Origin: Alphaproteobacteria bacterium
GTDB taxonomy: Bacteria; Pseudomonadota; Alphaproteobacteria; GM7ARS4; G965262615
Direction of reading: 5' to 3'
DNA: 64,000 bases
NCBI GenBank assembly: GCA_965262615.1
Contig: OZ253545.1
Coordinates: 512,001 to 576,000, forward strand
Within the stretch, counting starts at the first letter, position 1. The number at the start of each line of letters is the position of its first letter. Shown in pieces: positions 13,120 through 34,432 of the stretch. Under the pieces are notes generated by a model. That model was not told the origin of the DNA. It made no database searches and was given only the letters and a program-made list of their open reading frames with translations. The position numbers and the translations under genes were made by a program.

Positions 13120-13395
13120 ATGACAAAAAAACACTACAATAAAACCATGATGACCGACAGAAGATCCATGCTTTTGGCAAATTTTGATGCCTTTCAAAAG
13201 ATGTCCGCTCAATTCAAAAAAGAAGACAAGGGCAAGTATGTGCTTCTGCGTGATCAAAAACTCATCGGCGTTTTTGATACCGCCAGCCTCGCCCACAAAC
13301 ACGCCCTTGAGACCTACGATGACGACAATTACAGCTTTCAAGAAATTGGAGGCGAGCCAATTGAGATTCCTTTGTTCCGTGTCATCTCTGCTTAA
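13120..13395 (+). CDS. DUF5678-like small protein
   Basis: GKYVLLRDQKLIGVFDT pattern; directly upstream of a retropepsin-like protease, a recurring gene pair. Confidence 0.65.
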   Translation: MTKKHYNKTMMTDRRSMLLANFDAFQKMSAQFKKEDKGKYVLLRDQKLIGVFDTASLAHKHALETYDDDNYSFQEIGGEPIEIPLFRVISA

Positions 13396-13400
13396 TCAGC

Positions 13401-13823: not shown

Positions 13824-13923
13824 AACAACCTGAGGCTTTATCTCAATTCGTAAATAATCTTGCTCACGGCGGCGGCTTGCTTTAGAGTGATGCCATTGAT
13901 GCCTTCTTGATTGTCTCTGCTCC

Positions 13924-15957: not shown

Positions 15958-16680
15958 CTAACTTAACGATTGTATAGGGGGCATCTCATCATATGTTCTG
16001 CCGTTCAAAAGCCTCCCCGTTAAATCCTTGCGAACGCCGCCCCATTGCTTGAAGAAAAATTTAACCTTGCTTTTTCTGCACTGCTTGCGGATAGACTCCA
16101 CCCAAGCTTTTCGCATCAAGCGAGCTCCCGTCCCCGACTCGCCGCCGACAATCACCCAATCAATGCCATTTAACTGAAGGTTTTCACAGTGACCAATCAA
16201 AGGCTCACAAGATAAAAAGCGCACATATGAAGGCACATGGTGCAAATCTTCTATCCTGTTATAAACGCTTTCATCCTCTACACTGACACCCATCCAGATG
16301 TTTGGTGTCCAAGTCAATTGCAAGGCATACGCCCTCAACCGAGAGCTTCTTTTTGTGAGAATTTGAAATGTGTGTTGCGGACATTCATTCATGGTCGCAA
16401 ACACTTTTTGAATGAATGACAAAGGCACTTCGGGATGAAATAAATCACTCATGGAATTGACAAAAACAATTCTCCCCTTTTTCCATCTTTTCGGCAGGTC
16501 AATTAAATCTTCGTGCAAGGTGACATCAAAGCCGTTGCGATAGCGTTTATTGCCCATGACATGCAATCTGGCAGCCATCCGATGAGCATAGCAATTTTTG
16601 CACCCCGCGGAAATCTTGTCGCATCCCGTCACTGGATTCCAAGTGACTTCCGTCCATTCAATTTTTGACAACGATGCCAT
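15958..16680 (-). CDS. DUF5131 (phage Gp37/Gp68-like, radical-SAM-related three-Cys) protein
   Basis: SKIEWTEVTWNPVTGCDKISAGCKNCYA, VNSMSDLFH, WVIVGGESG, FFFKQWGG. Confidence 0.93.
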   Translation of the reverse strand: MASLSKIEWTEVTWNPVTGCDKISAGCKNCYAHRMAARLHVMGNKRYRNGFDVTLHEDLIDLPKRWKKGRIVFVNSMSDLFHPEVPLSFIQKVFATMNECPQHTFQILTKRSSRLRAYALQLTWTPNIWMGVSVEDESVYNRIEDLHHVPSYVRFLSCEPLIGHCENLQLNGIDWVIVGGESGTGARLMRKAWVESIRKQCRKSKVKFFFKQWGGVRKDLTGRLLNGRTYDEMPPIQSLS

Positions 16681-16683
16681 AAA

Positions 16684-17571
16684 TCATTCCCCCAAATTCA
16701 GTGACAGCTGTTGCCCTGATGATTCTTGGGAGCGTTCTCTCGGCTTAATAATATTATGCCGAGCTATGTTTTTTGCTATCTCAATAGCTCTAGGATTTTT
16801 GCTCCCAACACAAAAAATAAATTCAAACATGGCACTGTTTTTATCAGTTTTAAAAGTCTTGCTTTCCTCAAGCAATCTATTGCCAAATAAACTACGCAAT
16901 TGGTTTTTATAAAGATTGAGTATGCCCCTCACCCCTTCATCCATAATCACTTCATCATCGCCAAAAACATTTTGCTGAGGGTTGGTTTTATAAAAATTCT
17001 GCCAACTATTTCCACCAAAAATAAGCGTGAGTTTTTCTGCCCAAGTAGAATCAACATCCTCTGGCTTTTTTGTTCTAGGAATGATACGGGAAATTGCCAT
17101 GATTGGAAACAATATCCAAGTATCCAAAGCTTCATAGCTGGCAACTTCTTTCAAAGTAGAAAAATTCAATTGAGTCGCAAATGGATCAATAAACAGCACA
17201 CCTCTGTATTTTTTCCAATCTCTATTGAGATTTTTCAAAAACTCATTGGCATCTCCTTGAGAAATCTTTACACGCTCTTCATGGCCAAATCGTCCCTTAA
17301 GCCGTGCATGGGCTTCTATTTTCCACTCATTAAAAAGCAATTCATCAAATTGCCTATCTTTAATATCCAAAGCTATTTTTGGAGACCCCTTGATAAATTT
17401 TGACACACCGTCAGACTTTAACGGGACATATCCTGGTCCCGCAAAAGCATCTATGTAAATTAGACGAAAATACCGCCCTTTTTCGCTATTCAGCACTGTC
17501 GTGTATGCATCAAGATACTTGCCGAGTATCTTCAGCTTTTCCTCTGTCCATTCGCCACCGTATTCTTTCAT
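16684..17571 (-). CDS. tcmP: Three-Cys-motif partner protein (SAM-dependent methyltransferase-like)
   Basis: GEWTEEKLKILGKYL, YIDAFAGPG, GSP, GDAN, FIDPF; adjacent to DUF5131. Confidence 0.9.
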   Translation of the reverse strand: MKEYGGEWTEEKLKILGKYLDAYTTVLNSEKGRYFRLIYIDAFAGPGYVPLKSDGVSKFIKGSPKIALDIKDRQFDELLFNEWKIEAHARLKGRFGHEERVKISQGDANEFLKNLNRDWKKYRGVLFIDPFATQLNFSTLKEVASYEALDTWILFPIMAISRIIPRTKKPEDVDSTWAEKLTLIFGGNSWQNFYKTNPQQNVFGDDEVIMDEGVRGILNLYKNQLRSLFGNRLLEESKTFKTDKNSAMFEFIFCVGSKNPRAIEIAKNIARHNIIKPRERSQESSGQQLSLNLGE

Positions 17572-20856: not shown

Positions 20857-21864
20857 ATGACTCTTATTATTCCATCAAGCTCATCGTGTCTGTCACCCGT
20901 TCCTTACGACAATGAGGCGGCGTTTGAAAAAGACATTGTGAAGCATTATCCCCTGTTTTTTGGTGAAAAGACGCTGTTTATTCCCAAGAGAAAAATCAGT
21001 GGCGGAGCATTGGGTAACACCATTCCCGATGGCTTTTTGTTTGATTGTCGTGATGGTCAAAATCCGCGCTTTTACATCGTAGAAGTGGAATTGAGCCACC
21101 ACTCCTTTAGCCATATTCGTAGTCAGGTTGATAGGTTTTTGAATTTCTTTAACAGAAGGGAAATTCATGGCTTGGTTGGAACAATTTATAACACTGTTCA
21201 TAACGACAAAGAATTGAAGCAGAGATGGAATTCCTATTGCACTGGCGATATGCACCATTTGATGACGCGTAGCATTCAAGACCGTCACGGTATTCTTGTG
21301 CTTTTTGAGAAGAAAAATGATGATTTGGAAGAAGCGTTTGATGAGCATGGTGGGCTTTATGATTTATGGGAAAGGAAAGTGCAACGGATATTTATTCAAA
21401 AATATCAAGATGGTGATGATGTATTTTTTCACCAAGAAGGTGGGGTTGGTCAGCAAGAGATGAGTAATGTTTCAAGCAGTCGTAGGTTGCCTGAAACAGA
21501 GGAAGAGCATTTGCGTGTGTGTTCGCCGTCTACACGCGAGACTTATGCAAAAATAAAAGCCATGTTTCTTGAAAATGGTTTAGAGCAAAGAGTTGTTGGT
21601 GCTTACATTGGCTTTTGGATTAACGGCAGGCGGCGTGTTAAAATGTTTCCTCGCAGGGATTATTTTCATGTCTATGTTTTGCATGACGACTACAAATATT
21701 TCCATGATGGCGACAATGGGGATAGACACGCTCAATTGAAAAGCGTGGTGACACCATATCAGGTCATGTCGCCCAATGAAGGACACGACCATTTCTATCT
21801 AATCTTGGACAACGCCGACTACATGGACGCATTGCGGGCTTATATTCAGCCCGTTTTGTCTTAA
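20857..21864 (+). CDS. Putative PD-(D/E)XK nuclease with DUF5655-like C-terminal domain
   Basis: E..FE...IPDGFL...YIVEVEL N-terminal pattern; C-terminal domain (YIGF...VKMFPRR) is paralogous to 22671..23069. Confidence 0.6.
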   Translation: MTLIIPSSSSCLSPVPYDNEAAFEKDIVKHYPLFFGEKTLFIPKRKISGGALGNTIPDGFLFDCRDGQNPRFYIVEVELSHHSFSHIRSQVDRFLNFFNRREIHGLVGTIYNTVHNDKELKQRWNSYCTGDMHHLMTRSIQDRHGILVLFEKKNDDLEEAFDEHGGLYDLWERKVQRIFIQKYQDGDDVFFHQEGGVGQQEMSNVSSSRRLPETEEEHLRVCSPSTRETYAKIKAMFLENGLEQRVVGAYIGFWINGRRRVKMFPRRDYFHVYVLHDDYKYFHDGDNGDRHAQLKSVVTPYQVMSPNEGHDHFYLILDNADYMDALRAYIQPVLS

Positions 21865-21900
21865 TTCACCTGACGGCTTGCCTTCGTCAATCGTTCTCGC
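21783..21900 (+). repeat. Junction repeat unit R1 (gene 3' end + inverted MTase 3' end)
   Basis: GGACAACGCCGACTACATGGAC...CCCGTTTTGTCTTAA followed by ACCTGACGGCT..TCGTTCTCGCG, matching 24144-24177. Confidence 0.9.
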
Positions 21901-21949: not shown

Positions 21950-22495
21950 ATGAGTGAAACATTCACCATCACACGCACCGAGCAACGAGGCGAAGCCACA
22001 TTGGGCATGATGACTGACGAGAACGGCGCGGCTTTGTGTTGGACGCTTGAGGATTTGCAGCGTGCCGAAAAGATGGGTGGCGAGACCGCAATCCCTGTGG
22101 GGCGTTATGAGTTGATTGCTCAAAGCGAGAGCAAATTCATGGGTGTCTATCAGACGAAGATGGAGGGGTGGGGGATTTCTCATCCTTTCATGATTGAGTT
22201 GGCTGATGTGCCTGATTTTCGCTACATTTTGATCCACTGCGGCAGAACGCACGGCAACACCAAAGGCTGCATTCTGGTGGGTGACAGCAATTGCGTGAAC
22301 TACAAAGGATATGCAGAGGTGAGGGGCAGTTGGCAGGCATACAAGAGGATTTATCCGTTGCTTCGTGATGCGGTCAATGGCGGCGGCGGCTGGATTCAGA
22401 TTGTCAATGAGGTGCGAGGTGAGGAGGGGCTCACGCCACCCGACGACTCACATCCGCCAATCTTCGGCACACCAGACCGAAAAAATCCGAATTGA
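21950..22495 (+). CDS. DUF5675 family protein (phage-type putative peptidoglycan enzyme)
   Basis: ATLG...CWTLED...ETAIPVGRY...ILIHCG...NTKGCILVG; AGGA RBS. Confidence 0.82.
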   Translation: MSETFTITRTEQRGEATLGMMTDENGAALCWTLEDLQRAEKMGGETAIPVGRYELIAQSESKFMGVYQTKMEGWGISHPFMIELADVPDFRYILIHCGRTHGNTKGCILVGDSNCVNYKGYAEVRGSWQAYKRIYPLLRDAVNGGGGWIQIVNEVRGEEGLTPPDDSHPPIFGTPDRKNPN

Positions 22496-22498
22496 GAG

Positions 22499-22620
22499 AC
22501 ACGATTATTTTTATTTAGTCGTGGACAACACTGACCACATGGACGAGTTGCAAGCTCTCATGCAACCCGTCTTGTCTTAAGCCACCAGACGATTTGCCTC
22601 TGCCAGTCTTTGGTGCGTAA
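22499..22620 (+). repeat. Junction repeat unit R2 (non-genic)
   Basis: Encodes HDYFYLVVDNTDHMDELQALMQPVLS* with no gene 5' part, then GCCACCAGACGA..CCTCTGCCAGTC. Confidence 0.92.
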
Positions 22621-22670
22621 GTGCGAAAGTTTTTTTTGATTATGTGGCTTTTTAGTGCTACAATCAGTCC

Positions 22671-23069
22671 ATGAACAATTTGAGCGAAAAAGAAATTTCT
22701 CACTTGCAAGAGTATCCAAAGTTCGTGCGCGCCATTTATGCAAGGGTGAAGGAGTGTGTTGACGAAAGAGGTTTGATTCCACGCGTAACAAAAGACTACA
22801 TCGCTTTTAGAAACGACAGAAATGTAATTGAAATGTATTTTCGTCAGGAATATATCCATTTCTATGTTTTGCATGACAATTATAGGTATCGGGATACAGC
22901 CAAAGTGCCAATGCGGGATGTTGAGCAGAAGAAGGATCGCATTGCAAGCATGGTTCAATCGTATGAAATTGAAGAACCCAACGAGGGACACAAGCATTTC
23001 TATTTAATTGTGGACAACGCCGACCACATGGACGAGTTGCGAGCTTTCATGCAACCCGTTTTGTCTTAA
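22671..23069 (+). CDS. Stand-alone DUF5655-like domain; its 3' end is repeat unit R3
   Basis: 132 aa aligning with the C-terminus of 20857..21864 (H.YVLHD.Y.Y, PNEGH.HFYLI.DNAD.MD.LRA..QPVLS). Confidence 0.75.
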   Translation: MNNLSEKEISHLQEYPKFVRAIYARVKECVDERGLIPRVTKDYIAFRNDRNVIEMYFRQEYIHFYVLHDNYRYRDTAKVPMRDVEQKKDRIASMVQSYEIEEPNEGHKHFYLIVDNADHMDELRAFMQPVLS

Positions 23070-23074
23070 GCCAA

Positions 23075-24076
23075 ATGAATCTTTACGGGTCTTATCGTAA
23101 ATTATTGGCGAACAGCAAACACGCCGTTATAGCTGCCATTGAGATATACAACAAACCCAAATTTGAATATCGGGAAGAGATTTTTACAATATTGATTGCA
23201 ACAGCGTGGGAACTCTTCATCCTTGCTGTCTTGTCAAAAAACAAGCAACGCGTATTCGCTCCCAAAAAAAGGCACGAGGAATATAGAACACTATCCTTTG
23301 AAGAAGCCATAAGACAGGCAAAAAAGTATTTTCCTAAGGAAAAGTCACCTGATGCTGTCATTAGTAACATTCGTTCATTGAGAGCATACAGAAACACAGT
23401 GGTGCATTACTATCAGAAAGAGCAGAACAAACATGCAGTATACATGCTAGCCCATGCGTCTATCATGAATTACAGAGATTTATTGCTATCAATTTTCAAT
23501 CATGATATTGCCAGCGAAGTGAGTATTGTATTGTTGCCACTTAGCTTTAACCGCCAGCCAAACTTTGTTGAGTTTTTCAAAAAAACGCAAAAGAGAAATT
23601 TTACTCCATTCGTGAATGATCTTTTTACATCTATGCAAGCATTGGAGTCTATCAATGGTGTTGACACAAATCGCTTTATTACGGAATGTGTCATTAGAAT
23701 AGAGCCAGCTAATAGCATAAAGACCGCTGATGTTATAGTTAATGTCAAAGGTGGAGATGCTGAACATGTCGTTTTGAGGGACATTGATCCCGATGATAAA
23801 TATCCTTTTTTTCGGAAAAATATTATTGGTGATAAAAATACTCAAGTTCACAAAAATTTGAAACGCGGAATTAATTCATACCTGTTTCAAATAATTGTGT
23901 GGAAGTATTCTATCAAAAAAGACAGAAAGTATTGTTGGGCATCAAAAAAAGGTGGTTCGCCAAGATATTCCCAAAACATGATTAATTTTTTAAATAATCT
24001 TACTGACAATGAGATTGAAAGAGCGAAGGAAGAGTATAGGAATTTTCGGCAGAGAGAAAACTTAAAAAAGGTTTGA
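23075..24076 (+). CDS. DUF3644 (HEPN-like) domain protein
   Basis: AAIEIYNKP...YREE.F.IL...AWEL and RNTVVH (R-x4-H) motifs; strongly AT-rich. Confidence 0.85.
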   Translation: MNLYGSYRKLLANSKHAVIAAIEIYNKPKFEYREEIFTILIATAWELFILAVLSKNKQRVFAPKKRHEEYRTLSFEEAIRQAKKYFPKEKSPDAVISNIRSLRAYRNTVVHYYQKEQNKHAVYMLAHASIMNYRDLLLSIFNHDIASEVSIVLLPLSFNRQPNFVEFFKKTQKRNFTPFVNDLFTSMQALESINGVDTNRFITECVIRIEPANSIKTADVIVNVKGGDAEHVVLRDIDPDDKYPFFRKNIIGDKNTQVHKNLKRGINSYLFQIIVWKYSIKKDRKYCWASKKGGSPRYSQNMINFLNNLTDNEIERAKEEYRNFRQRENLKKV

Positions 24077-24082
24077 AGAAAT

Positions 24083-24180
24083 GAACAAAGCCGACCACAT
24101 GGACGAGTTGCAAGCCCTCATGCAACCCGTTTTGTCTTAGGCAACCTGACGGCTCACCTCTGCCAGTCGTTCTCGCGCCA
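24083..24180 (+). repeat. Junction repeat unit R4 (abuts the live MTase stop)
   Basis: GCCGACCACATGGACGAGTTGCAAGCCCTCATGCAACCCGTTTTGTCTTA. Confidence 0.92.
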
Positions 24181-24952
24181 AATTACAATAGTTTTCATCA
24201 ATTTCCATTGCGATAAAATGCCGTGCATGAACTTTTGCCATCACTGCGGTTGTGCCACTGCCACACATGGGGTCACACACCACATCGCCCTCATTGCTGA
24301 AACAACACAATAAGTCCGATGCCAGCGCATCGGGGTAGGTGGCGGGGTGCTTCATCTTGAGGCGATTGCCCTCTGTGTTGCTGGTGGCATAATTCCACAC
24401 CGTGCCGCGGCATTTTTTGTCATTCACCTTTTTTGGAGCAATCACCTTAAAGCCCCCATTTGTGAGTCTGTCCGTGCCGCTATAGGTTTTGCCGGCGTGT
24501 TTGCTGGCGATCATCAAATGCTCTTTGTGAAACACGCGCGGGCGCGCGCCTCGCAAAAACAACAAAATATATTCATGGTCTACACGAAACCGTCCGTTCC
24601 ACCACGCCCCCGGATTGCCATGACGCTGATAAATGCAACACTCAAACAAACGCAAATCCGTTTCATCCACCCAATTGACCGCCAGCCGAAAGGATGTCAG
24701 AGACTTGGCAAAATCCTTTGTGCCATCGCCAATCACCACCGCCACCACGCCGCCATCTTTAGTGATTCGTGCCAGCTCCTTGCCCAACGCCGTATAATCC
24801 CAGCTCCAGTCGCCGTTGTAATCACGAATTCCATCGTAGGGCGGTGAGAACAGGGTGAAAGAAATTGATTCATCAGGCAGCTGCGGCAACAATTCCAAGC
24901 AATCGCCATGCATGATGGCATCTCTCATCTTGGGGGGGATTTTTTTCGTCAT
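24137..24952 (-). CDS. Orphan N4-cytosine/N6-adenine DNA methyltransferase (beta class)
   Basis: GDCL, SPPY (motif IV) before HPA.YP and DPMCGSGTT (motif I). Confidence 0.92.
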   Translation of the reverse strand: MTKKIPPKMRDAIMHGDCLELLPQLPDESISFTLFSPPYDGIRDYNGDWSWDYTALGKELARITKDGGVVAVVIGDGTKDFAKSLTSFRLAVNWVDETDLRLFECCIYQRHGNPGAWWNGRFRVDHEYILLFLRGARPRVFHKEHLMIASKHAGKTYSGTDRLTNGGFKVIAPKKVNDKKCRGTVWNYATSNTEGNRLKMKHPATYPDALASDLLCCFSNEGDVVCDPMCGSGTTAVMAKVHARHFIAMEIDENYCNLARERLAEVSRQVA

Positions 24953-25526: not shown

Positions 25527-26017
25527 GTTTCTGCTCCTTTGAGGGCGATGGTATCAATGGCTTTTTTGAGTGACAAGGGGTCATCTAGGTTTGGCAGTTG
25601 GATTGAGCCGCTGCCCACATCATTGATGCGAATGGTGCCGTAGTCCAGCATGCGCCCCATGACCGATTGCGCGACATTGACCTCGGCGATGCGTCTGGCG
25701 GCGATTTCTTCCATGCGGCGAGAGACGAGTCCTGTTTTGTAGATGATGCGGCGGTCGGAGATCATCACATGGGTGCTCCACTTGATGGCGCGATTATCCG
25801 CCGCCAGCAGCACGCACGACACTCCCATGATGAACAGAAAATGGTCAAGAAACGGACGCCCATCCGCCACATCAACATAAATCGCAAAAAACGCAATGAT
25901 GGCAAGTCCCCCATAAATCTGAAACAACACATCATAAAACCAATGAAAGCGCGCACTATAGATGATGCGCTCTTCGGGTTGGCGAATCTGCTCAAAATAC
26001 TCAGCTCCCTCATTCAT
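25523..26017 (-). CDS. Membrane protein with bacterial PH domain
   Basis: Two TM helices followed by SDRRIIYKTGL...V.QS.MGRMLDYGTI. Confidence 0.82.
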   Translation of the reverse strand: MNEGAEYFEQIRQPEERIIYSARFHWFYDVLFQIYGGLAIIAFFAIYVDVADGRPFLDHFLFIMGVSCVLLAADNRAIKWSTHVMISDRRIIYKTGLVSRRMEEIAARRIAEVNVAQSVMGRMLDYGTIRINDVGSGSIQLPNLDDPLSLKKAIDTIALKGAET

Positions 26018-26075
26018 GGGATGAGTGTAGCAGTGAAGACACCAATAAGAAAGGTGGTTGTGGGGTGCAAGGTTC

Positions 26076-26666
26076 TCACACCACCACTTTTTTTTCGTCT
26101 ACTTTATTAATTTTCTCACGCCGAACTGATACAGCTTTTTCAACCAATTGCGGCAACTGATTATTATAAGCGGCAACTTGTTCGCCAGACCAGGTCACAT
26201 ATTCTTTGAGCAGTTCCAATTTCTGCTCAAAATCTTTATTTAATTTTTTAGGATTTGAACAATCATCAGAGTCAAGAGGGTACGAGATAGAAATCCGCAC
26301 TTTATCGCCCACCACCTCGCCAGGGCAACCAAGCATGGTTAATGTGGGTGTTTGACATTCAAAAAGCCAATACTCACCTTCAAAAGGGATATCGGCATTA
26401 TATTGCACTCCATCCACAGAGGGATAGTGATGGTATATTGAGTGACGAGACATCTCAATTTTTGTTTCCTTGCCGTCATGCTTTTCTATTTGTTCTTCAT
26501 GAAGAACAAGAGGCTCAATTTTTAATGGAGCGACGATGCCGTCAATGATGGCTTTGTCATTTGAGCTTGAGAATTGATCTCTAGGAATTTTCTCTACCAT
26601 AGAGGCAATTTTTTGCTTTCGTTGTTCAATCTGCGCATACAAATAGCGTTGCCTGAAAAGTGTCAT
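26076..26666 (-). CDS. Hypothetical protein, possibly C-terminally truncated
   Basis: 196 aa, AAGGAG RBS; ends in an A-rich run at the island edge. Confidence 0.6.
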   Translation of the reverse strand: MTLFRQRYLYAQIEQRKQKIASMVEKIPRDQFSSSNDKAIIDGIVAPLKIEPLVLHEEQIEKHDGKETKIEMSRHSIYHHYPSVDGVQYNADIPFEGEYWLFECQTPTLTMLGCPGEVVGDKVRISISYPLDSDDCSNPKKLNKDFEQKLELLKEYVTWSGEQVAAYNNQLPQLVEKAVSVRREKINKVDEKKVVV

Positions 26667-26701
26667 TTCTCACTCCTTGATTTTTGAGTTTGAAGAAAAT
26701 T

Positions 26702-26785
26702 TTAACCGCGACGGCTTTTGCCGATGTAGACAGTCTCGCGACCCTTTTTCAATCTATAGACTTTGGTGTCCTGTTTTTTAGGCAT
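26702..26785 (-). pseudogene. Truncated GIY-YIG-like ORF
   Basis: MPKKQDTKVYRLKKGRETVYIGKSRRG* with AAGGAGG RBS; VY.L...VYIG.S pattern. Confidence 0.6.
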
Positions 26786-26817
26786 TATGCCCTCCTTTGC
26801 TGTTAATCTTGAACCAA

Positions 26818-26864
26818 ATACTAGATATTATATGTTGCTGGAACAAAATGTCAATATCTTGTGG
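26818..26864. promoter_or_regulatory. Tandem NrdR-box-like sites
   Basis: ATACTAGATATTATAT (26818-26833) and TGTCAATATCTTGTGG (26849-26864), 31 bp apart, resembling acaCwAtATaTwGtg. Confidence 0.55.
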
Positions 26865-26910
26865 TGAATATTTTGTATTGCAAATCCGATGGCGTGGCAA
26901 TGACTCAATC

Positions 26911-26939
26911 TTGTTTTTTCTTGTTTGTGGGCGTATAGT
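26911..26939 (+). promoter_or_regulatory. Sigma70-type promoter for structured RNA A
   Basis: TTGTTT-17 bp-TATAGT; homologous to TTGTTT-17-TATGGT at 58586-58614. Confidence 0.65.
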
Positions 26940-26983
26940 GACGGTGCAAAAGTTACCATAGTCTGATTTCTGCGCGAGCAGAG

Positions 26984-27096
26984 GTCGGGTTACCTGCTGA
27001 ATACAAGACCTAATGGCGAAATAGGGGAATAGGCAGGTGTCTCACGCTGCGTTGTGTGTTACACGCGGTGCGGCAGGGATCTTACGGTGGCCCGAC
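26984..27096 (+). ncRNA. C4-antisense-like structured RNA, copy A
   Basis: Closing stem GTCGGGTTACC/GGTGGCCCGAC; arm with TGAATACAAGAC...GGAATAG; shared with copies at 58659 and 58866. Confidence 0.7.
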
Positions 27097-27112
27097 GCTG
27101 TCATCACATAAC

Positions 27113-27217
27113 AAAATCATGTTCGGCGGACGCGCCATCGGCTGGCGCACCTCAGTCATTCAGCGATGGATTGATAGCCGTATACATACGGATGGTGAGA
27201 AGCAAAAATTATATTGA
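27113..27217 (+). pseudogene. AlpA-family regulator C-terminal remnant
   Basis: KIMFGGRAIGWRTSVIQRWIDSR matches the AlpA LGGRAVGW...V..WI.SR pattern; N-terminal half missing. Confidence 0.75.
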
Positions 27218-27246
27218 AAATGTCCCTACCTAAAGACAGAGTGTAG

Positions 27247-28698
27247 TCAGAGACCCTCTTCTGCAACAATGCGCTCTGCCAGTGAGAGAGCCTCATATTC
27301 ATTGTTGGAGTGATTGAAAATCATCGCCACAATTTTTCTTCCATTAGAATTAGGGTGCCTCCCCTCCATTTTAATGGGCACACTAAAGTTGTTGCTGACT
27401 AATTTTTTCAAATGACGAGTCTCTTCACACATAGGCAAGTGAGCTGAATTGATTTTTGCATGAAAGTCTTCTATCTGAGACTCCAATTTTTTTCTCAAGT
27501 CACCCTCAATCAAACCTTTTTCAATAAGGTTCATACAGCCAATAAAATAGGAAGCTCTCTTTTCAAAGTTACGCAACATATTGCGCTCTGAAGATTTGGA
27601 ACGACATAGACGCGCAATAGCCCTACCGTTAAGCTTAAGTCTGCTTACAAGCTCTCTATAAAAAGCGTTATTTTCGAAATTATCGCGGCTACCGTTTGGG
27701 ACAAGCCGTTCATCAATAATATGAATTTCACCAACACACCAGCTATTGAACCGTTCCTCAGGAAAAATGTCCAATAGAATTCTATTATCACCTACCTGTA
27801 TGTTTCCACAACGGATTCGCAATCCAGCAATGCTTTGATTATGCTGTAGTGAGCCAAAGTAATTATGATGAGCGATCCAACCCACCGCCGCTAATTGGTC
27901 GCCATGACCCGGAATTTTTATTGTTTCCAGTTCCGTAAAGGAATCTTTCAATTGAGAAGAAAGAGAAAACTTATTACGAAACGGACGACAAATTGGCTCT
28001 TCTGAGTCATTCAGGTAAATTGAAATTCCACTGACATCAACATGAGGAGATAAAAATTCATTTATATCACGATGAAATTTGAATTCAGAAGCAAAGGGCA
28101 CTGGCGCGATTTGCTCCAAAAATTTCTTGACTGCATCCTCATTGAGTAGAATGTCATTGCCGTGGCGGATGACATCATGCAAAGTAACTTGAAAGAAAGA
28201 TTCATCTGAAGGGTCGCAAGATTCTTGAGAAAAAGAAGTGGCTTTTTTTACAAGGCTTAAAGCATCAATGCTATCATCGCTTGACATAAGAAGCTTACTA
28301 AAATGGACAACATCCCAATCAAAATTGCTTATTTGACCCTCACCAGCCGCCTTTGTCTTGAAGGATAGACGCTTGCAATAACCAATTCCAGAAAGCCTCC
28401 CAATTCCCCAAAGCCCACGCGATGACACCATATATTTTTTTGAGCTGCATCCAAGCCCCGTCATACAGGAAAGGAAATTTGCATTGGTAATTCCGCTCCC
28501 ATTGTCCCTAATGCTTACCATGCGCTCTGATTGATCAATAAAAATATCTATGCGAGGCTCAAAACGGTTATTGTCCTTACGAGCATCATCAACGGAGTCA
28601 GCAGCGTTTTGGATATACTCTCTGTAAAGCAGGAGAGGATTGCCATACATAGCTGTTGTGACAAGGCGCAGGATATTTTTGCCGACACGAGCATTCAT
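27247..28698 (-). CDS. GHKL (Hsp90/MORC-like) ATPase
   Basis: REYIQNAADS, IRDNGSG, SSK, GLWGIGRLSG; second domain with VGEIH...PNGSRDNFE. Confidence 0.88.
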   Translation of the reverse strand: MNARVGKNILRLVTTAMYGNPLLLYREYIQNAADSVDDARKDNNRFEPRIDIFIDQSERMVSIRDNGSGITNANFLSCMTGLGCSSKKYMVSSRGLWGIGRLSGIGYCKRLSFKTKAAGEGQISNFDWDVVHFSKLLMSSDDSIDALSLVKKATSFSQESCDPSDESFFQVTLHDVIRHGNDILLNEDAVKKFLEQIAPVPFASEFKFHRDINEFLSPHVDVSGISIYLNDSEEPICRPFRNKFSLSSQLKDSFTELETIKIPGHGDQLAAVGWIAHHNYFGSLQHNQSIAGLRIRCGNIQVGDNRILLDIFPEERFNSWCVGEIHIIDERLVPNGSRDNFENNAFYRELVSRLKLNGRAIARLCRSKSSERNMLRNFEKRASYFIGCMNLIEKGLIEGDLRKKLESQIEDFHAKINSAHLPMCEETRHLKKLVSNNFSVPIKMEGRHPNSNGRKIVAMIFNHSNNEYEALSLAERIVAEEGL

Positions 28699-30272
28699 GA
28701 GTCATCGCTCTCTTCTGCAATGCCAGCATCTTCGACTCGCTCATCATCTGGCAATGACGGCAAGTCTTCGGCAACTTTAATCGCTTTCATTTTTTCCCAA
28801 ATATCCATCTCTTCTTGAGAACTTACCTTACGGTAGAAATGATGCAAGTCTCTAATTTTCTTATCAGCATGATTGAACAATCTTTCTTCACGCTCCTTAC
28901 TGTCTCTCGTATCAAGCGCGGATTTTAGATCGTCTTTTTGAGACGGTGATAATTTTGAAAAGTGAGTACAAAATTCATCATACTCTTCTCTGCCACCGTA
29001 TTGGGTGTACCATGCTCGATTAAAGGTATACACATGCGGCTGAAAAAGAAGGTCTTCAAAATCATCATAGCTATCACCAAAGGCTGTTTTGAAAAACGCA
29101 GGATTGCCACTCACAATGCCATGGGTTGCTTGCAGGATAATTTGCATGGAGCGTAGCCAGTAAATGTTCCATTTTTCCCCGACATAACGGCGGTGAGGCT
29201 GATTGGTGGGCTGATAGCGCATAGGAAAGGAAAAAATCCTGATTCCTAACTCTTCATTGAGAGCCACATTGAGGCGCATCCGAGCAAAAAGGTCTTGAGG
29301 GCTATCGTGGAAATTATAAAGCATATAATTTGAAAGCTCAGTAATGCCAGCATCAAAGGCATAGCGGACCGCTTGTTCATAGGGTTTGCGTAATCCTCCA
29401 TGATCAAAGGCAATGCGTAATGGCTTAATGCAAATGGTTGCCATTTCCTGTAGAAAATGAGGTGATTTGCAAAGAATACGGGCATCCACGCCTTGATTAA
29501 AGTCCACACGGCGTTGTAATGAGCGTCCATTTCTTTTTAGTTTTGCACCCGCTTGAAATCCAAGATCGCGTATTTCAGCTATAATTTCCTTATAGCGTGG
29601 GGCAGCTGTGACATTGTTGTCCATCAAAATGAGGTCTTTCTTCTCGCCGTAGAGCTCAGCTACGCCATCAATAATGCGGCTCAATGATTGCGTTTCGCGC
29701 AAATCCCCTTCTAGTTTCGGAACACCACAAAAAGAACATTTACGAGTACAGCCCCGAGAAGCATAGGTGAAATAAGCATCCGATACAGGATATTGATAGT
29801 CAATGTGGTCAAGAATGCTGTAATCAGGGACATGGTCTTCAATGGGCGTTCCTTCTGTGTCATCGGCATAAAGGTCATTGGAAAAATGATCCAGCTGCAA
29901 TGAGGTTGCCGGATCCTTATCCAAAAGACCTTGAATAAAGCGCACGCCACTCCAGCGTGGCTCATCGGTGAATCGCTCGCGCATGAGAGAGGCGGCAATG
30001 CCGCCGACAAAAACCTTGTCAGCATTGCCACCAACCGCCTTGAGAGCAAAGTCTATGGATGCCGCAATGCGTTTATACTCAAAAGAAAAAAGGGTCGTGA
30101 TATAAATGCGATCCCAATGTTTTTGCAACACGCTTTCATCCTCTCCCTTGATAAAGCACACATGGTCATTTTTGCCTCGCTCACCGTGATACTGAGCAAT
30201 TTTCATGAGCCCCAACGGCGGATACTTGTTTTTATAGCCGGGCTCAATCAGCAAGATGTTTTTACCAGACAT
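28695..30272 (-). CDS. Radical SAM protein with B12-binding-like N-terminus
   Basis: ILLIEP...YPPLGLMK, VGGIAAS, SRGCTRKCSFC (CxxxCxxC), MDNN, DFNQG.DAR; start placed at MSGKN (30272). Confidence 0.9.
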   Translation of the reverse strand: MSGKNILLIEPGYKNKYPPLGLMKIAQYHGERGKNDHVCFIKGEDESVLQKHWDRIYITTLFSFEYKRIAASIDFALKAVGGNADKVFVGGIAASLMRERFTDEPRWSGVRFIQGLLDKDPATSLQLDHFSNDLYADDTEGTPIEDHVPDYSILDHIDYQYPVSDAYFTYASRGCTRKCSFCGVPKLEGDLRETQSLSRIIDGVAELYGEKKDLILMDNNVTAAPRYKEIIAEIRDLGFQAGAKLKRNGRSLQRRVDFNQGVDARILCKSPHFLQEMATICIKPLRIAFDHGGLRKPYEQAVRYAFDAGITELSNYMLYNFHDSPQDLFARMRLNVALNEELGIRIFSFPMRYQPTNQPHRRYVGEKWNIYWLRSMQIILQATHGIVSGNPAFFKTAFGDSYDDFEDLLFQPHVYTFNRAWYTQYGGREEYDEFCTHFSKLSPSQKDDLKSALDTRDSKEREERLFNHADKKIRDLHHFYRKVSSQEEMDIWEKMKAIKVAEDLPSLPDDERVEDAGIAEESDDS

Positions 30273-30279
30273 AGCCTTA

Positions 30280-31260
30280 TCAAGGTTCTTTCGCAAGAAA
30301 ATCATCCACTCGCTGTAAAGCGCGCTTGATCTTTCTGACGATAGGGGCACATTTATTGCGCTCTTGTTTTTGCATATCGGAATCCAGTGGCGCATTTGAC
30401 AAGCGGGAATTGACGCTTTTTAATGTTTTTTCCAAGGGTGACCTTTGTGAAAGCTCATAAGCTTCATCCAATGAAATCTCTCCCTTGATTAATTTTTGCA
30501 ACATTTTCTTTTTTTCTATAATAGTAGGCATCTTATTTCTGAGATCTTGTGTAGAAAAAGGAGGGTCATTTTTTATTTCTTTCAAAAGATACTTCTTAAA
30601 ATCTGCATTAGAAGCCATCTCGCTTTTTACAGCGCGACGCAGCACAATACCTTCGTAGTAGTGGCTAAAATGGGGCTTTTTATTGTCCCCATTTTCACGC
30701 ATCATTTTTATTGTTTCGACATAATTTTGAAGTTCAGACTTGCTTAGAGAGAACCTTATAACCATTTCTTCATAAGAAATCTTCTCTTCTTCTATTCTCC
30801 TATAAAGCTTGCCAGCAAGTTCATACGGGTCCCAGGGTGTCTTTCCCTCGGAATGCTCGAGATCAAGAAAAGAATCTATCTGTCTTTCACTAATATCTGC
30901 TACTACTTTGCAGCGGATAGATTCCCATTTGTGGGGATCTTTTTGATAAAGCAGGCGGTAAGCTGCTAAGCGCGAATTCCCTTCAATCACTTCCTTCTTC
31001 TTAAAATTAACAAAGATTGGATTTATCAAGCCTCCATGCTTATTGATACTTCCAACCAATTTTTTCTTGACATGGCTCTCACCTTGCAATTTGTGTTCTA
31101 TAACGACCTGCAGTTGGTCGTAGGGCAATTTCCGCTCATCATCAGATATCGAAGAATACACACGGGGGTTGTCAGGCAAATACCTGAGCTCATTAACATC
31201 CATAGATTGAATTTCAAAAGGAATCTCATCACCCAGAATGTGTATGTAGCTATCACTCAT
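30280..31260 (-). CDS. ParB/Srx-like domain protein 2
   Basis: DNPR...SI..HGGL.NPI.V...VIEGNSRLAA...W.PYE.A. Confidence 0.78.
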   Translation of the reverse strand: MSDSYIHILGDEIPFEIQSMDVNELRYLPDNPRVYSSISDDERKLPYDQLQVVIEHKLQGESHVKKKLVGSINKHGGLINPIFVNFKKKEVIEGNSRLAAYRLLYQKDPHKWESIRCKVVADISERQIDSFLDLEHSEGKTPWDPYELAGKLYRRIEEEKISYEEMVIRFSLSKSELQNYVETIKMMRENGDNKKPHFSHYYEGIVLRRAVKSEMASNADFKKYLLKEIKNDPPFSTQDLRNKMPTIIEKKKMLQKLIKGEISLDEAYELSQRSPLEKTLKSVNSRLSNAPLDSDMQKQERNKCAPIVRKIKRALQRVDDFLAKEP

Positions 31261-32732
31261 TTCAAAAAATCATCCTCTAAGGTCATTTTCAAGAAATTCT
31301 CCAAGTCCGATTTTACATCAAAATCAAATGACGCGTCAAACTCTTTTTGATTTTGATCCCCTTGTGCCAATTGAGCTGCTTGATGCTTTGCTTTAAGGAG
31401 ACGAGCCGTCCACAGGTCAATGGTTTGATCGGCGATGAGGTTATGGACAAAACAATGTTGCTCTTGTGAAATTCTGTGAATGCGGTCTTGTGCCTGCAAA
31501 TAATCATCCAAACTGAAACTCCGATCATAAAAAATCGCATGATTAGCCACCGTTAAGGTGAGTCCCTCTTTGGCTGAGCCGGGTGTGGCAATGAGAATTT
31601 GGCAATTCTTGTCGCCCTTGAATTTTTGCACGGCATGGTGGCGTTCATCCATTGTTTTTTTGCCATGAATTTTTGCAACGCCATAATGTTTCAGCTGACT
31701 TGCCAGCCAGTCTGCATTTTTGATGAAGCTTGTCCACACAATCACTTTTTCATTTTGCATGGTGATTGTGTCCACCATTTTTTGCAGTTCAACAAACTTA
31801 CATGGAATCTCATCGTATTTATCATCAAAAATAAAAGGATTGGATGCACACTGCACGAGGCGCAAAAGCCCCTTGAGAATGTTGTTAATTGTATCCAGCA
31901 GAATATCATCCATTCTGTACATGAATTCATCTCTGTATTGGCGATAGATTTCCTCCTGCCGTGGCGCAAGAGGCACTTTATGCTCCCTAATCGTCTTTGA
32001 CGGCAATTCAATTCCTGAAGATTGTTTTGTCTCACGAATGGCAAAGTGCTTAATTGAATTGAAGATGCCAGACAGAACATCGCTGTATTTTTCATCCGTT
32101 TCATCATTTTTCATATCAGGCAAGTCCGTTTGTCTTTTGAATTGATCAAAAGAATCCCCTAATGCTTTGCCTCCATCCAGAAAATTGATTTGTGACCAAA
32201 TATCATAGGGGCGATTGGCAACGGGCGTTCCTGTCATGATGATGCGCCGTTCAAAAGATGGCGCCATGTTCAAAAATACTTTGGTGATTTTGGAGTCAGG
32301 ATTTTTGATTTTATGTGCCTCATCCAAAATCACACCGACACGACAGGTTTGCAAAAAAATCTTCAGCAATTCTTCATTGGCTGTCAAAACTTCATAATTC
32401 ATCACATAGAGAAGCACAGGCGAATTGAGCAGCATGCTATTTTCTCTACGCTTTTGTGAAAGAATACTTGGCTTGATATGACAGTGAACCTGAGCCTCTT
32501 CTCGCCAATTATGAACAAGAGATTTTTTTGTGACGATAAAAACCGTATCCACAATGTCCTTTGTGAGCCAAAAAAGAGTGAGATCCAAAGCAATCTTGGT
32601 TTTTCCTAATCCTTGTTCATGAAAAACAGCCGCATAGGGCAAGTCTTGAATTGCTCGCAGTGCATCCAACTGATACGGAAAAGATTCCGTTTTGCCCATG
32701 AAGCTGGGAGGCTTTTTCAAAACAAATGCCAT
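31257..32732 (-). CDS. SNF2-family helicase/ATPase
   Basis: EQGLGKT, LDEAH, MTGTP.AN, KVIVW, GLTLT.A, QA.DRIHRI; AGGAGG RBS before ATG 32732. Confidence 0.92.
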   Translation of the reverse strand: MAFVLKKPPSFMGKTESFPYQLDALRAIQDLPYAAVFHEQGLGKTKIALDLTLFWLTKDIVDTVFIVTKKSLVHNWREEAQVHCHIKPSILSQKRRENSMLLNSPVLLYVMNYEVLTANEELLKIFLQTCRVGVILDEAHKIKNPDSKITKVFLNMAPSFERRIIMTGTPVANRPYDIWSQINFLDGGKALGDSFDQFKRQTDLPDMKNDETDEKYSDVLSGIFNSIKHFAIRETKQSSGIELPSKTIREHKVPLAPRQEEIYRQYRDEFMYRMDDILLDTINNILKGLLRLVQCASNPFIFDDKYDEIPCKFVELQKMVDTITMQNEKVIVWTSFIKNADWLASQLKHYGVAKIHGKKTMDERHHAVQKFKGDKNCQILIATPGSAKEGLTLTVANHAIFYDRSFSLDDYLQAQDRIHRISQEQHCFVHNLIADQTIDLWTARLLKAKHQAAQLAQGDQNQKEFDASFDFDVKSDLENFLKMTLEDDFLK

Positions 32733-33154
32733 TTTATTTTTCCTCCTGCTTTTAAGAACCAAGCGTCACACTCATCAAAAACAATCATGTGGGTTCTTTT
32801 TAATTTCATGTCGTCTCGTAATTTTTCTAGCACGAATTGCGTTTTTTCCAAGCACTCATAAGGCACAGACAACATCAATTGATTATCTTTACCTTTTTCA
32901 AGGTAAGATAAAAAAGACTTGAATTGGCTGATACTATGACGACGCTCAATATCAAATGATGTCTTAGCCTCGCCAATGATAATCTGTTTTTTCGTTTCGG
33001 CGTATAGGTCAGGTCTGTGGCTACCGATAATGGGAGGTGTGGGGTCTCCCGGCTTTTCTTGAGCATCAACTACAGCCTTACTATCAGGAAAATTCTCATT
33101 GAGCCAAATTTCCATTTTTTTCACTAAGAGTCTGTGTTGCTCGCTTTCAGCCAT
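32717..33154 (-). CDS. Small PD-(D/E)XK nuclease-fold protein
   Basis: ES..H..L...RPDLYA...IIIGEAKT motif. Confidence 0.65.
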   Translation of the reverse strand: MAESEQHRLLVKKMEIWLNENFPDSKAVVDAQEKPGDPTPPIIGSHRPDLYAETKKQIIIGEAKTSFDIERRHSISQFKSFLSYLEKGKDNQLMLSVPYECLEKTQFVLEKLRDDMKLKRTHMIVFDECDAWFLKAGGKIKWHLF

Positions 33155-33173
33155 ATTGCAAGCTTAGCTATAA

Positions 33174-34199
33174 TTAATCCTTCCGCACCATCTGAAGAAG
33201 TGATTGCAAGTGGCTCAGTAAAGAATCCAAAACTCTCACTTCATCTTGTGCGTCTTCATTGCCAGCATCTTGTAGTCTTTGCACTTCAGAAAAAGACAGG
33301 GATGAAATTTTTTGCGACAGATTATCTGCCAATTGGCTTAATGACGCATTGCTCAAATTTTCATTGCCGGATTTTTGCTTTTCCTTCACTATGAGAAAAT
33401 CATTTGCTTCGCCGACCGAATTGATACCTCCTTTGAGGAATATATTTTTAGCCTCTGGGTCACGAAGGACTTTAGGTAAAATTCTCACATCCGCTAGGCG
33501 ATGAATCCAGCCATCGCGAATCCATTTTCCAAAATCTTCCAGCGAGTGACCGCTATCAAAGATAGCTTTCTTAACACCAGCCTTTTGCAATTCAACGAAG
33601 CCACTAAATCTATCTATGTGGAATTCATTGTCATTGACAGTGTTTTTATAAAATTCAATCATATCTTCATAAGCCTCTATCAAAATTTCAATTTCTCTTT
33701 TATTGCCGCCACAAAGAGCAACAATTTGATCGCGGCTCATAAAATTTTGATAATAGAGCTCATGCAAGTATTTTGCTTTTTCGTAAGCCGGCCAATCCCT
33801 CGGCGGCACCATGTGGGCAGCTATTCTGATGGTCTCAATACCAGCGCGGTCAATATTTTCTTTTACCTGTGCAGGTATTTTTCCCCAATGACCTGAAGCA
33901 TCATTTTTGAGAAATTCATGATAAATTGCCAAGCGTGTGTTTCCATCTATGCATTTGTACTCTCCATTTTCAATGACAACAATAATTGGCTGCTCGATTT
34001 TGCCGCCTGCTCTGATTGAATCTCTGAGCTTTGCAAAAGCTCCACTAGAGCCAGACTCACCTTCTCCAGCAGATCGCAAAGCAAAATAAATGCGTTCCGC
34101 CGTTATTTTGTCGCCATACTTCTCAAGTGCATTTTTGATGCGAGGATTCCCCGTATCGTATTCAATCTTATCAATATCAAGCAGCTGAATATCACTCAT
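33174..34199 (-). CDS. ParB/Srx-like domain protein 1
   Basis: NPRI...L.DSI...G.I.QPI.V...CIDGNTRLA...W.AYEKA; distant paralogue of 30280..31260. Confidence 0.78.
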   Translation of the reverse strand: MSDIQLLDIDKIEYDTGNPRIKNALEKYGDKITAERIYFALRSAGEGESGSSGAFAKLRDSIRAGGKIEQPIIVVIENGEYKCIDGNTRLAIYHEFLKNDASGHWGKIPAQVKENIDRAGIETIRIAAHMVPPRDWPAYEKAKYLHELYYQNFMSRDQIVALCGGNKREIEILIEAYEDMIEFYKNTVNDNEFHIDRFSGFVELQKAGVKKAIFDSGHSLEDFGKWIRDGWIHRLADVRILPKVLRDPEAKNIFLKGGINSVGEANDFLIVKEKQKSGNENLSNASLSQLADNLSQKISSLSFSEVQRLQDAGNEDAQDEVRVLDSLLSHLQSLLQMVRKD

Positions 34200-34218
34200 T
34201 GCTCACATCCGTCGGGCA

Positions 34219-34246
34219 ATTATACCATAAGTGGATTGATTCACAA
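34219..34246 (-). promoter_or_regulatory. Promoter of the six-gene operon
   Basis: Minus strand TTGTGA-16 bp-TATAAT with extended -10 TG, just upstream of ATG 34199. Confidence 0.6.
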
Positions 34247-34343: not shown

Positions 34344-34432
34344 TGGCGGATGGGGCGGGATTCGAACCCGCGAGGAGCAAAACCCCTGCCGGTTTTCAAG
34401 ACCGGTGCATTCGACCACTCTGCCACCCATCC
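34344..34432 (-). tRNA. tRNA-Ser(TGA)
   Basis: GGATGGG...CCGGT-CTTGAAA-ACCGG...long variable arm...GGTTCGAATCC...CCCATCCGCCA. Confidence 0.96.

Follow-up and report, generated by a model that had tools for sequence, protein, structure and literature searches.

The islet beside tRNA-Ser and its six genes

The stretch of DNA analysed here (hereafter the window) comprises 64,000 nucleotides from the genome of an Alphaproteobacteria bacterium, a single contig of 1.54 Mb (positions 512,001 to 576,000 of contig OZ253545.1, assembly GCA_965262615.1), and contains an islet of six intact, co-oriented, and tightly packed minus-strand open reading frames (ORFs) spanning positions 27247-34199, which had originally been predicted to form an undescribed defence or DNA-modification operon. 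Read in the direction of the genes, these are g1, encoding ParB1 (33174-34199, 341 amino acids); g2, encoding a candidate mini PD-(D/E)xK nuclease (32717-33154, 145 amino acids); g3, encoding a core-only SNF2 ATPase (31257-32732, 491 amino acids from the ATG at 32732); g4, encoding ParB2 (30280-31260, 326 amino acids); g5, encoding a radical-SAM enzyme (28695-30272, 525 amino acids); and g6, encoding an Hsp90/HtpG-like GHKL ATPase (27247-28698, 483 amino acids), whose start overlaps the stop of g5. ATGA overlaps join g3 to g4 (31257-31260) and g5 to g6 (28695-28698), g2 and g3 overlap by 16 bp with the g2 stop at 32717, and gaps of 19 nt and 7 nt separate g1 from g2 and g4 from g5, respectively. 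This arrangement bears out the run of overlapping and closely spaced genes first described, with two of the starts corrected: g3 begins at the ATG at 32732, 8 nt after an AGGAGGA, and not at the TTG at 32762, and g5 begins at the ATG at 30272, since 28 aligned homologues begin at the corresponding MxxKNILLIEPGY, and not at 30395, where the longest ORF would begin. The single promoter that had been placed ahead of the operon was recovered as a promoter-like site, TTGTGA-16-(TG)TATAAT, on the minus strand at 34246-34219, 19 nt before the g1 ATG, which is a consensus match only (10 of 12 positions plus an extended -10 TG). A second promoter-like site, TTGACG-18-TAAAAT, with 10 of 12 matches, lies at 31310-31339 inside the end of g3 and just upstream of g4; likewise a match to the consensus only, it could let g4, g5, and g6 be expressed separately from g1-g3.

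The right boundary of the islet is the 3' end of a minus-strand tRNA-Ser(tga) gene called by ARAGORN (34344-34432), leaving about 100 nt between position 34344 and the g1 promoter-like site downstream of it. The proportion of G and C is 0.39-0.46 over 26001-34000 as against 0.51-0.55 on the right flank, and tRNA position and base composition thus agree with the AT-rich island at a tRNA-Ser 3' end that had been proposed. The further claim that the mobility genes of this island have decayed has a single weak remnant behind it. An AlpA-type prophage regulator remnant on the plus strand near the left boundary (27014-27217; Pfam Phage_AlpA E 0.0043, 17.3 bits against a cut-off of 21, covering just the last 20 profile positions) was the sole mobility-gene trace found; at the islet we found no integrase, no tRNA-derived direct repeat of at least 15 nt, and, with up to 3 mismatches allowed, no further occurrence of the 3' end of the tRNA gene. 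Metagenome contig depth over 27608-33947 was below that of the flanks in three runs, and two metagenome contigs join across the islet at 34342/34344 with only 27-28 letters on the shorter side and 85% likeness, which together give a weak hint of islet-free strains and no more. Another metagenome contig, from run X1 and with 39 letters on its shorter side, connects 30272 with 31285, a join that removes or replaces almost exactly ParB2 and keeps the SNF2 and radical-SAM genes, and may represent a strain variant in which g4 is different or missing.

The domain labels of the original prediction fared unevenly: those of the SNF2 and GHKL proteins are clear by Pfam, that of the radical-SAM enzyme falls just under the Pfam cut-off and is carried by an invariant CxxxCxxC motif, and those of the ParB and nuclease proteins, for which the window proteins gave no Pfam match, draw on profiles and invariant motifs. 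The Pfam Radical_SAM model matched 29 of 29 g5 homologues at E values up to 0.1 and scored about 26.6-26.8 bits on the window copy (cut-off 29.5), and the three cysteines of the CxxxCxxC motif (C175, C179, and C182) are the only ones invariant across the same 29 homologues, by which we assign g5 to the radical-SAM superfamily. The methylthiotransferases MiaB and RimO are defined by a second, N-terminal Fe-S cluster on three conserved cysteines. No second set of invariant cysteines occurs in the 29 g5 sequences, which argues against an auxiliary cluster and hence against MiaB/RimO-type chemistry, and g5 was rejected as a methylthiotransferase of this kind. Its weak NCBIfam matches are to RimO/MiaB and to B12-type radical-SAM families, and its profile recovered from the PDB just the cluster-binding stretch of RimO/MiaB-type proteins, at E 0.02 and weaker. 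The N-terminal ~130 residues are weakly B12-binding-like; three B12-binding proteins are encoded elsewhere in the host genome, which shows the host to use cobalamin. Among the 120 g5 homologues listed, annotations were confined to 'radical SAM protein', 'hypothetical protein', or 'YgiQ', and the ESM Atlas homologue of g5 led only to generic radical-SAM clusters. At the C-terminus of the g5 family (28695-28760 in the window), a variable linker is followed by a conserved acidic tail, P-x-DE-x-VEDAGL (DExVEDAGL), which looks like a docking peptide for a partner.

Downstream of g5, the g6 protein matched Pfam HATPase_c_3 (E 2e-10), and all 27 of the sequences compared share the Bergerat-fold motifs E27, N31, D34, D65-G67-G69, G95, G98, and G100. 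The best PDB match of its profile was the N-domain of HtpG (E 1.6e-12), and the best NCBIfam match was 'HSP90 family protein' (E 2.9e-9, far under the cut-off); the match to the Hsp90 middle domain was not significant. These matches place g6 among the GHKL ATPases of the Hsp90/HtpG branch, not with MORC or MutL, and the MORC-type label first given to it is replaced on the strength of the best PDB sequence match. In a 725-amino-acid protein fragment on a cut contig (P0251), the C-terminal half of the g5 family (profile positions 217-434) and HATPase_c_3 stand in one reading frame. This is a single case, in which either the two genes have fused naturally or genes that overlap have been read through.

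Among the remaining proteins, g3 has Pfam matches to SNF2-rel_dom (E 2e-28) and Helicase_C (E 1e-18), with GLGKT, DEAH, and QxxDRxHRxxQ invariant in 23 of 23 sequences; its PADLOC matches to ZorD and DpdE were confined to the helicase parts of these models. For g1, Pfam ParB_N matched 19 of 24 homologues (best E 2.5e-6; the window copy reached just E 0.038), and the best PDB matches of the profile, weak at E 0.025-0.05, were Noc and SbnI, with GNTR aligned to GERR. The invariant residues are N18, P19, and R20 (NPR) and G86, N87, T88, and R89 (GNTR) in g1, and N31, P32, and R33 followed by E93, G94, N95, S96, and R97 in g4; g4 is a full-length paralogue of g1 (ParB1 profile against ParB2 profile in hhalign: probability 99.8, E 1e-29, 302 columns aligned). 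With a ParB N-terminal domain and the phosphate-binding GxxR signature present, both proteins are assigned to the ParB/Srx superfamily. We considered ParB2 as a diverged DpdB and rejected this, since its profile showed no detectable relation to that of the DGQHR family that partners g5 elsewhere (see below). The small g2 protein had no Pfam, NCBIfam, PADLOC, or PDB sequence match, and its profile retrieved nothing meaningful from the PDB. D49, E62, and K64 (PD...EAK) are invariant in 27 of 27 homologues, as are H7, D30, and Q77, and we regard g2 as a candidate minimal PD-(D/E)xK nuclease, a fold suggested by its motif.

Two exchangeable modules in related genomes

Related loci were collected in two ways, with ORFs in them taken from simple calls made in this analysis. 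A scan seeded with g5, using one genome per species, matched 199 genomes, of which the best 80 loci were examined; these are 60-67% identical to g5 and come from Pseudomonadota, Acidobacteriota, Verrucomicrobiota, Nitrospinota, Gemmatimonadota, and others, and 79 were usable for neighbour counts, L058 having been dropped with no radical-SAM ORF called. A scan seeded with an alignment of ParB1 matched 292 genomes, the best 80 loci of which were again examined; this alignment was used in place of a single-protein SNF2 query of genome contigs, which had returned only unrelated Burkholderiales SNF2 genes at 25-29% identity. A megablast search of the operon against Escherichia coli genomes gave no match.

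A g6 homologue directly follows the radical-SAM gene in all 80 g5-seeded loci, and 76 distinct loci from at least 11 named phyla carry g1, g3, g5, and g6 together, a conservation that makes the gene arrangement more than chance. Gene order, whose conservation across genomes the original prediction had named as a check, was likewise retained, with all six genes in the order of the window in 60 of the 80 ParB1-seeded loci; 8 more have g1-g5, and 1 is without only a detectable g2. The radical-SAM gene was present in 69 of these 80 loci, in most of them directly after ParB2. Where it was absent, three loci (L152, L158, and L175) keep ParB1, the nuclease, and SNF2, the latter two loci also ParB2, on contigs that end soon afterwards, and the others are remnants that have lost SNF2, such that no intact set of g1-g4 without a radical-SAM gene was seen among the best 80 ParB1-seeded loci.

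Seen from g5, the neighbourhood is more varied. The ParB1-nuclease-SNF2-ParB2 four-gene cassette accompanies it in 31 of the 79 g5-seeded loci, a PIN-like gene with a second GHKL paralogue in 28, and a HerA-like gene with a GHKL gene and an unknown gene in 7, and a DGQHR/DndB-family gene stands just upstream of the radical-SAM gene in 44. Flanks of 8 kb or more on either side were available for 56 loci, and 47 of these had at least one of the three nuclease-type cassettes (the four-gene cassette in 24, the PIN-like gene with the second GHKL gene in 25, and the HerA-like cassette in 6), and 9 had none of these. The system is therefore built of two exchangeable modules, a core (g5 and g6) and an accessory module (g1-g4), and the dependence between them is one-way: the accessory module needs the core, and the core stands alone or with other nuclease modules. 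The co-occurrence of the six genes was thus correctly foreseen, and their indivisibility as a unit was not. The grouping of both ATPases with the ParB paralogues as sensor and effector also gives way, the GHKL ATPase going with the radical-SAM gene and not with the helicase. The absence of a DNA methyltransferase from the system was corroborated, with no methyltransferase family recurring among the 25 commonest neighbour families or in a Pfam scan of 11 of them.

The six proteins differ widely in their conservation, with identities of 54-67% (across phyla) for g5, 45-61% for g3, 32-57% for g1, 30-47% for g6, 28-38% for g4, and 20-42% for g2. By this measure, g5 is the slowest-evolving component, as expected for fixed chemistry on a universal substrate. 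The modules also differ in descent. In quick trees without bootstraps of the radical-SAM and ParB1 proteins of the 76 loci and the window, the radical-SAM sequences formed two clades (Shimodaira-Hasegawa-like approximate likelihood ratio support of 97 each), with the window, L002, L003, and L113 in clade I together with all DGQHR-bearing loci, and the ParB1 sequences of the same four grouped with clade II loci (support 98), as did those of L026 and L165 (support 100). Forcing the clade I rows together on the ParB1 data cost 120 log-likelihood units (approximately unbiased test, p 1.7e-10), the group having been defined from the radical-SAM tree after the ParB1 tree had been seen. This conflict indicates that modules were swapped between lineages, and the working together of cassettes of different descent fits a coupling via a shared mark more easily than one via co-evolved contacts.

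The g5 family is large, with at least 8000 clusters at 90% identity and 515 clusters at 50% identity (E up to 1e-30), and is found in bacteria from soil, from the sea, and from sponges as well as on plasmids of rhizobia. Of 40 relatives searched, 1 has a full-length g5 homologue, and 2 others gave a match that was partial or weak. The core occurs on 12 alphaproteobacterial plasmids, including pNL1 of Novosphingobium aromaticivorans, where the region is annotated only as 'PIN-like', 'ATP-binding', 'DGQHR domain-containing', and 'radical SAM', and 7 of 13 plasmid matches are typed as conjugative. IMG/VR gave 501 matches, the best 80 of which amount to 79 distinct loci: 5 predicted viral contigs carry all six genes, 2 carry the ParB cassette (no small nuclease detected) with DGQHR, radical-SAM, and ATPase genes, 7 the radical-SAM/ATPase pair only, and 5 a radical-SAM gene with an SNF2 match; in 1 a ParB match accompanies the radical-SAM gene, in 55 the radical-SAM gene is distant and stands alone, and the other 4 matched no profile. 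Phage records contained only distant g5 homologues (24-40% identity); Marinitoga virus 1 has a lone homologue, and one 'unverified' phage contig combines GHKL, radical-SAM, and Schlafen-like genes.

Two of the partner sets that recur with the core were seen as units of their own. Pairs of PIN_8 with an Hsp90-like ATPase paralogue, and sets of a HerA/DndH-like ATPase, an unknown protein of 280-300 amino acids, and a paralogue (L006, L040, L047, L183, and others), were observed, and the ATPase-paralogue pairs often share an island with the radical-SAM pair. The PIN and GHKL pair is without a PADLOC match and may be another undescribed module.

The system is found among defence-type genes and on mobile DNA, in keeping with the closeness to defence islands that the original prediction had named as a check. 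Within the window, PADLOC matched a PDC-M41 pair at 15958-17571, comprising a DUF5131 gene (PDC-M41B, E 1.6e-119) and a methyltransferase-like gene (PDC-M41A, E 1.2e-61), in a low-GC patch between transketolase and aldehyde dehydrogenase genes; DUF5131 genes recur near the radical-SAM core in 6 of the 79 related loci. Low-GC patches nearby also contain a PDC-S19-like DUF3644/REase gene, a PADLOC candidate match, at 23075-24076, an orphan DNA methyltransferase gene at 24137-24952, and a match to only the first half of PDC-S54 at 26076-26666 (196 amino acids, E 7.9e-32, profile positions 6-191 of 410). The last of these is preceded by a promoter that matches the consensus at 12 of 12 positions (26854-26827) and by an upstream ORF of 27 codons (26705-26785). 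Four copies of a 90-130-nt segment resembling a duplicated gene end (21772-21895, 22488-22611, 22977-23100, and 24082-24171) bracket small cassettes, namely a DUF5675 gene (21950-22495), an unknown gene (22515-22997), and the PDC-S19-like gene, and metagenome contigs join 22121 to 24144, 22599 to 24198, and 23079 to 24131, which suggests that the cassettes between 21772 and 24171 come and go as the repeated segments recombine. Farther left, direct repeats of 69 nt (12842-12910 and 13849-13917; 77% identity) flank a low-GC region of small ORFs, one of which is an aspartyl-protease-like gene (13401-13823), and may delimit another cassette slot (12842-13917).

A possible modification-restriction system and its rivals

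If the core is taken as a writer and the accessory module as a cutter, a writer able to stand alone beside cutters unable to do so is the pattern of restriction-modification, and the lone writer, the alternative cutter cassettes, the slow enzyme with fast partners, and the swapped cassettes are together hallmarks of modification-restriction of the Dnd/Dpd type. In the relatives, the DpdB-like DGQHR neighbour and the DndH-like HerA partner point the same way. The reading that we favour, which we hold to be plausible and somewhat short of probable, is that the operon is a horizontally acquired modification-restriction defence system, a cousin of Dnd and Dpd, in which the radical-SAM enzyme writes a DNA mark. 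Of the roles originally proposed for this enzyme, that of a source of a non-methylase self mark appears to fit the comparative pattern best.

Under this modification-restriction reading, which is built from sequence comparison and from analogy, the core cassette of g5 and g6 would put a covalent mark on the cell's own DNA. The chemistry of g5 may be guessed to be a cobalamin-type C-alkylation or another radical change of a base, because the protein combines one Fe-S site with a B12-binding-like N-domain, and g6 might clamp or open DNA, by analogy with the ATPase activity of DpdB in Dpd. The accessory cassette (g1-g4) would be the restriction arm, in which ParB1 and ParB2 would load on DNA and read its state, the SNF2 motor g3 would translocate, and the small PD-(D/E)xK nuclease g2 would cut DNA without the mark. 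Possible, and to be held only tentatively, is the stronger proposal of a new chemistry, in which the radical-SAM enzyme and an Hsp90-like DNA clamp write a novel non-methylase mark on the chromosome that the ParB pair reads for the SNF2-nuclease pair. If true, this would add a fourth self-marking chemistry to methylation, phosphorothioation, and 7-deazaguanine modification, one shared by at least 11 phyla and by metagenomic lineages in their thousands; should g5 mark DNA, it would represent a new epigenetic DNA chemistry in bacteria, and the system would be the first cellular immune system with a radical-SAM writer. Long-read base-calling, methylome surveys, and the ease with which many environmental bacteria are transformed could then all be affected by a base modification that had gone unnoticed. 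The system also offers a clean test case for the mixing of modification and restriction cassettes between lineages, and in it Hsp90-like and ParB-like proteins appear in a functional setting new to them.

Several observations weigh against the favoured reading. Pfam B12-binding matched only 2 of the 29 close g5 homologues (best E 1.5e-4) and 4 of 18 distant ones, all under the cut-off. Six ParB1-seeded loci (L108, L129, L135, L140, L155, and L162) have a radical-SAM gene and no GHKL ATPase within reach, so the ATPase is usual and not indispensable. PADLOC v2 is without a model for g5, and thus nothing in that library lists g5 as a defence gene. As a difference from Dpd, the window operon has no DpdB-like DGQHR gene, a gene from which the analogy is partly drawn, and neither g1 nor g4 matches DpdB; the only DndB-like gene of the host genome lies ~270 kb away. 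Finally, PIN-like and HerA-like proteins, too, have paralogues of the Hsp90-like ATPase as partners, which fits the strongest rival.

That rival, which we consider unlikely, holds that the Hsp90-like ATPase is an infection switch and that the radical-SAM enzyme is an effector or signal maker, producing a toxic or chain-terminating nucleotide in the manner of viperin, or modifies a cellular target, with the ParB, SNF2, and nuclease proteins as a second, DNA-directed effector or a sensor. In its favour are the pairing of same-family GHKL paralogues with PIN-like genes (28 of 79 loci) and HerA-like genes (7 of 79) and the core pair standing alone in 9 of the 56 well-flanked loci. The available text of one 2026 preprint mentions a neighbourhood of a cyclase-like effector, HSP90, and a radical-SAM gene (10.64898/2026.10.19.760177), and a radical-SAM enzyme is described as essential in Ophion (10.1101/2025.09.30.679545, as far as the accessible text goes). 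Set against these are the conservation of the radical-SAM enzyme, far greater than that of every partner and unlike that of fast-evolving effectors; the lack of a match of g5 to pVip or any other PADLOC model; the frequent DpdB-like neighbour, which suggests a DNA substrate; and, in the preprint, a dyad whose radical-SAM member may be of another family than g5.

A role in the upkeep of mobile elements would account for the presence of the system on large, partly conjugative plasmids (7 of 13 typed conjugative), and ParB_N-type domains are classically those of partition proteins. On this account, which we judge improbable, the two ParB proteins would work with SNF2 and the ATPase to maintain, partition, silence, or repair the DNA of the element, and the radical-SAM protein would be a repair or metabolic enzyme, for which the radical-SAM DNA repair enzyme spore photoproduct lyase, as treated in the accessible part of PMC8989533, is a precedent. 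Among the neighbour families, however, neither a ParA partner nor replication genes recur; in the window, the islet lies on the chromosome, and all six genes are intact although those for mobility are gone; and a conserved nuclease triad with swappable PIN and DndH-like partners is typical of restriction modules.

Less probable still is that the radical-SAM/ATPase pair attacks foreign DNA directly, damaging or adducting it, and that the ParB, SNF2, and nuclease proteins find and clear the damaged molecules. This would explain both the need of the accessory module for the core and the interchangeability of cassettes from different lineages, but it requires a separate means of sparing the cell's own DNA, for which there is no candidate among the six genes, and a lone core, as in 9 of the 56 loci, would be dangerous or useless. 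We consider it least probable of all that the ParB/SNF2/nuclease cassette is a type IV-like system cutting modified phage DNA, as GmrSD-type enzymes, in which ParB-fold NTPases coupled to nucleases act in a modification-dependent manner, might suggest, with the radical-SAM pair as co-located cargo, since co-location fails to explain the radical-SAM gene in 69 of the best 80 ParB1-seeded loci or the want of any intact cassette lacking it among them.

Comparison with described systems

No named system was matched in PADLOC v2 or NCBIfam, in agreement with the original assessment that the combination is not a recognised one. In PADLOC v2, g5 and g2 are without a model, and the matches of g1, g4, and g6 are no more than weak, no NCBIfam family lay above its cut-off for any of the six proteins, and a literature search whose scope excluded subscription journals and supplements found no paper describing the six-gene combination.

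The likeness to Dpd, the 7-deazaguanine system, is one of plan. Each is an island of several genes with a component for modification and another for restriction, the latter has an SNF2-type helicase (g3 matches the DpdE models at E 2.6e-33, through the generic helicase core only), and a ParB-superfamily protein is tied to the writer; in the relatives, the DGQHR partner upstream of the radical-SAM gene matches the PADLOC DpdB model at E 1e-10 to 1.7e-17. DpdB is an ATPase needed to insert preQ0 into DNA, and ATP hydrolysis is needed for writing, according to the part of PMC10164549 available to us. Unlike in Dpd, the six proteins have no DpdA/TGT match in PADLOC, Pfam, or NCBIfam, there is no DpdC and there are no queuosine-pathway genes, and a radical-SAM enzyme and an Hsp90-like ATPase occupy the place of the writer. 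The two ParB paralogues of the operon also belong to another family than the DpdB-like protein.

With the phosphorothioate systems Dnd and Ssp, the system shares a writer often found without a cutter, and the accessible text of PMC10853773 describes the Dnd modules as decoupled. In the relatives, a DGQHR/DndB-family protein adjoins the writer (Pfam DndB E 2.7e-11), and the HerA/FtsK-domain partner of one alternative cassette matches the C-terminus of DndH (E 8e-47). However, PADLOC, Pfam, and NCBIfam found no DndA, DndC, DndD, or DndE homologues among the six proteins, and the only Fe-S enzyme here is a true radical-SAM protein, so the chemistry must differ from that of Dnd.

A link of GHKL (paraMORC/MutL-like) ATPases with SWI2/SNF2 helicases and nucleases in defence-type operons was drawn by Iyer, Abhiman and Aravind 2008 (PMC2292703, in its accessible text), and the operon resembles these restriction-modification operons in combining a GHKL ATPase with an SNF2 helicase and a nuclease. 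It differs in that its ATPase is closest to HtpG/Hsp90 and bound to a radical-SAM gene, not to the helicase; the word 'radical' has 0 occurrences in that same text. Zorya I offers the closer match to g3, whose resemblance to the ZorD models (E 3.5e-48, profile positions 434-880 of 908) is better than that to DpdE and covers the helicase half; g3 has no counterpart of the N-terminal half of ZorD and scores 75.5 with the NCBIfam ZorD model, whose cut-off is 1500, a small gene of its own encodes the nuclease, and none of the six proteins matches ZorA, ZorB, or ZorC.

Systems with a radical-SAM enzyme are fewer. The viperins and OpnA of Ophion, as far as the latter's accessible text goes, share with the operon a radical-SAM enzyme central to a defence-type cluster, which in Ophion is essential for defence (10.1101/2025.09.30.679545). 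From the viperins (pVip), whose radical-SAM fold makes ddh-nucleotides, g5 is set apart by the absence of any PADLOC match, and from Ophion by its B12-binding-like N-domain and its other partners, the PHP and PRTase partners being absent here. The only text found to name an HSP90 and radical-SAM pair in the context of immunity is the preprint cited above (10.64898/2026.10.19.760177), the available text of which treats HSP90-like NTPases as switches and lists, in one clause and with no analysis, a three-gene neighbourhood of PAACC (a cyclase-like effector), HSP90, and radical-SAM. That neighbourhood differs from the present system in its cyclase-like partner; in the same text, ParB and SNF2 are unmentioned, DGQHR and DndB have 0 occurrences, and its radical-SAM member may belong to a different family. 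The operon thus lacks what defines Dpd, Dnd, Zorya, the viperins, and Ophion, and for a radical-SAM enzyme acting as a DNA modifier one published precedent is gp53 of phage M6, as given in the accessible part of PMC8989533.

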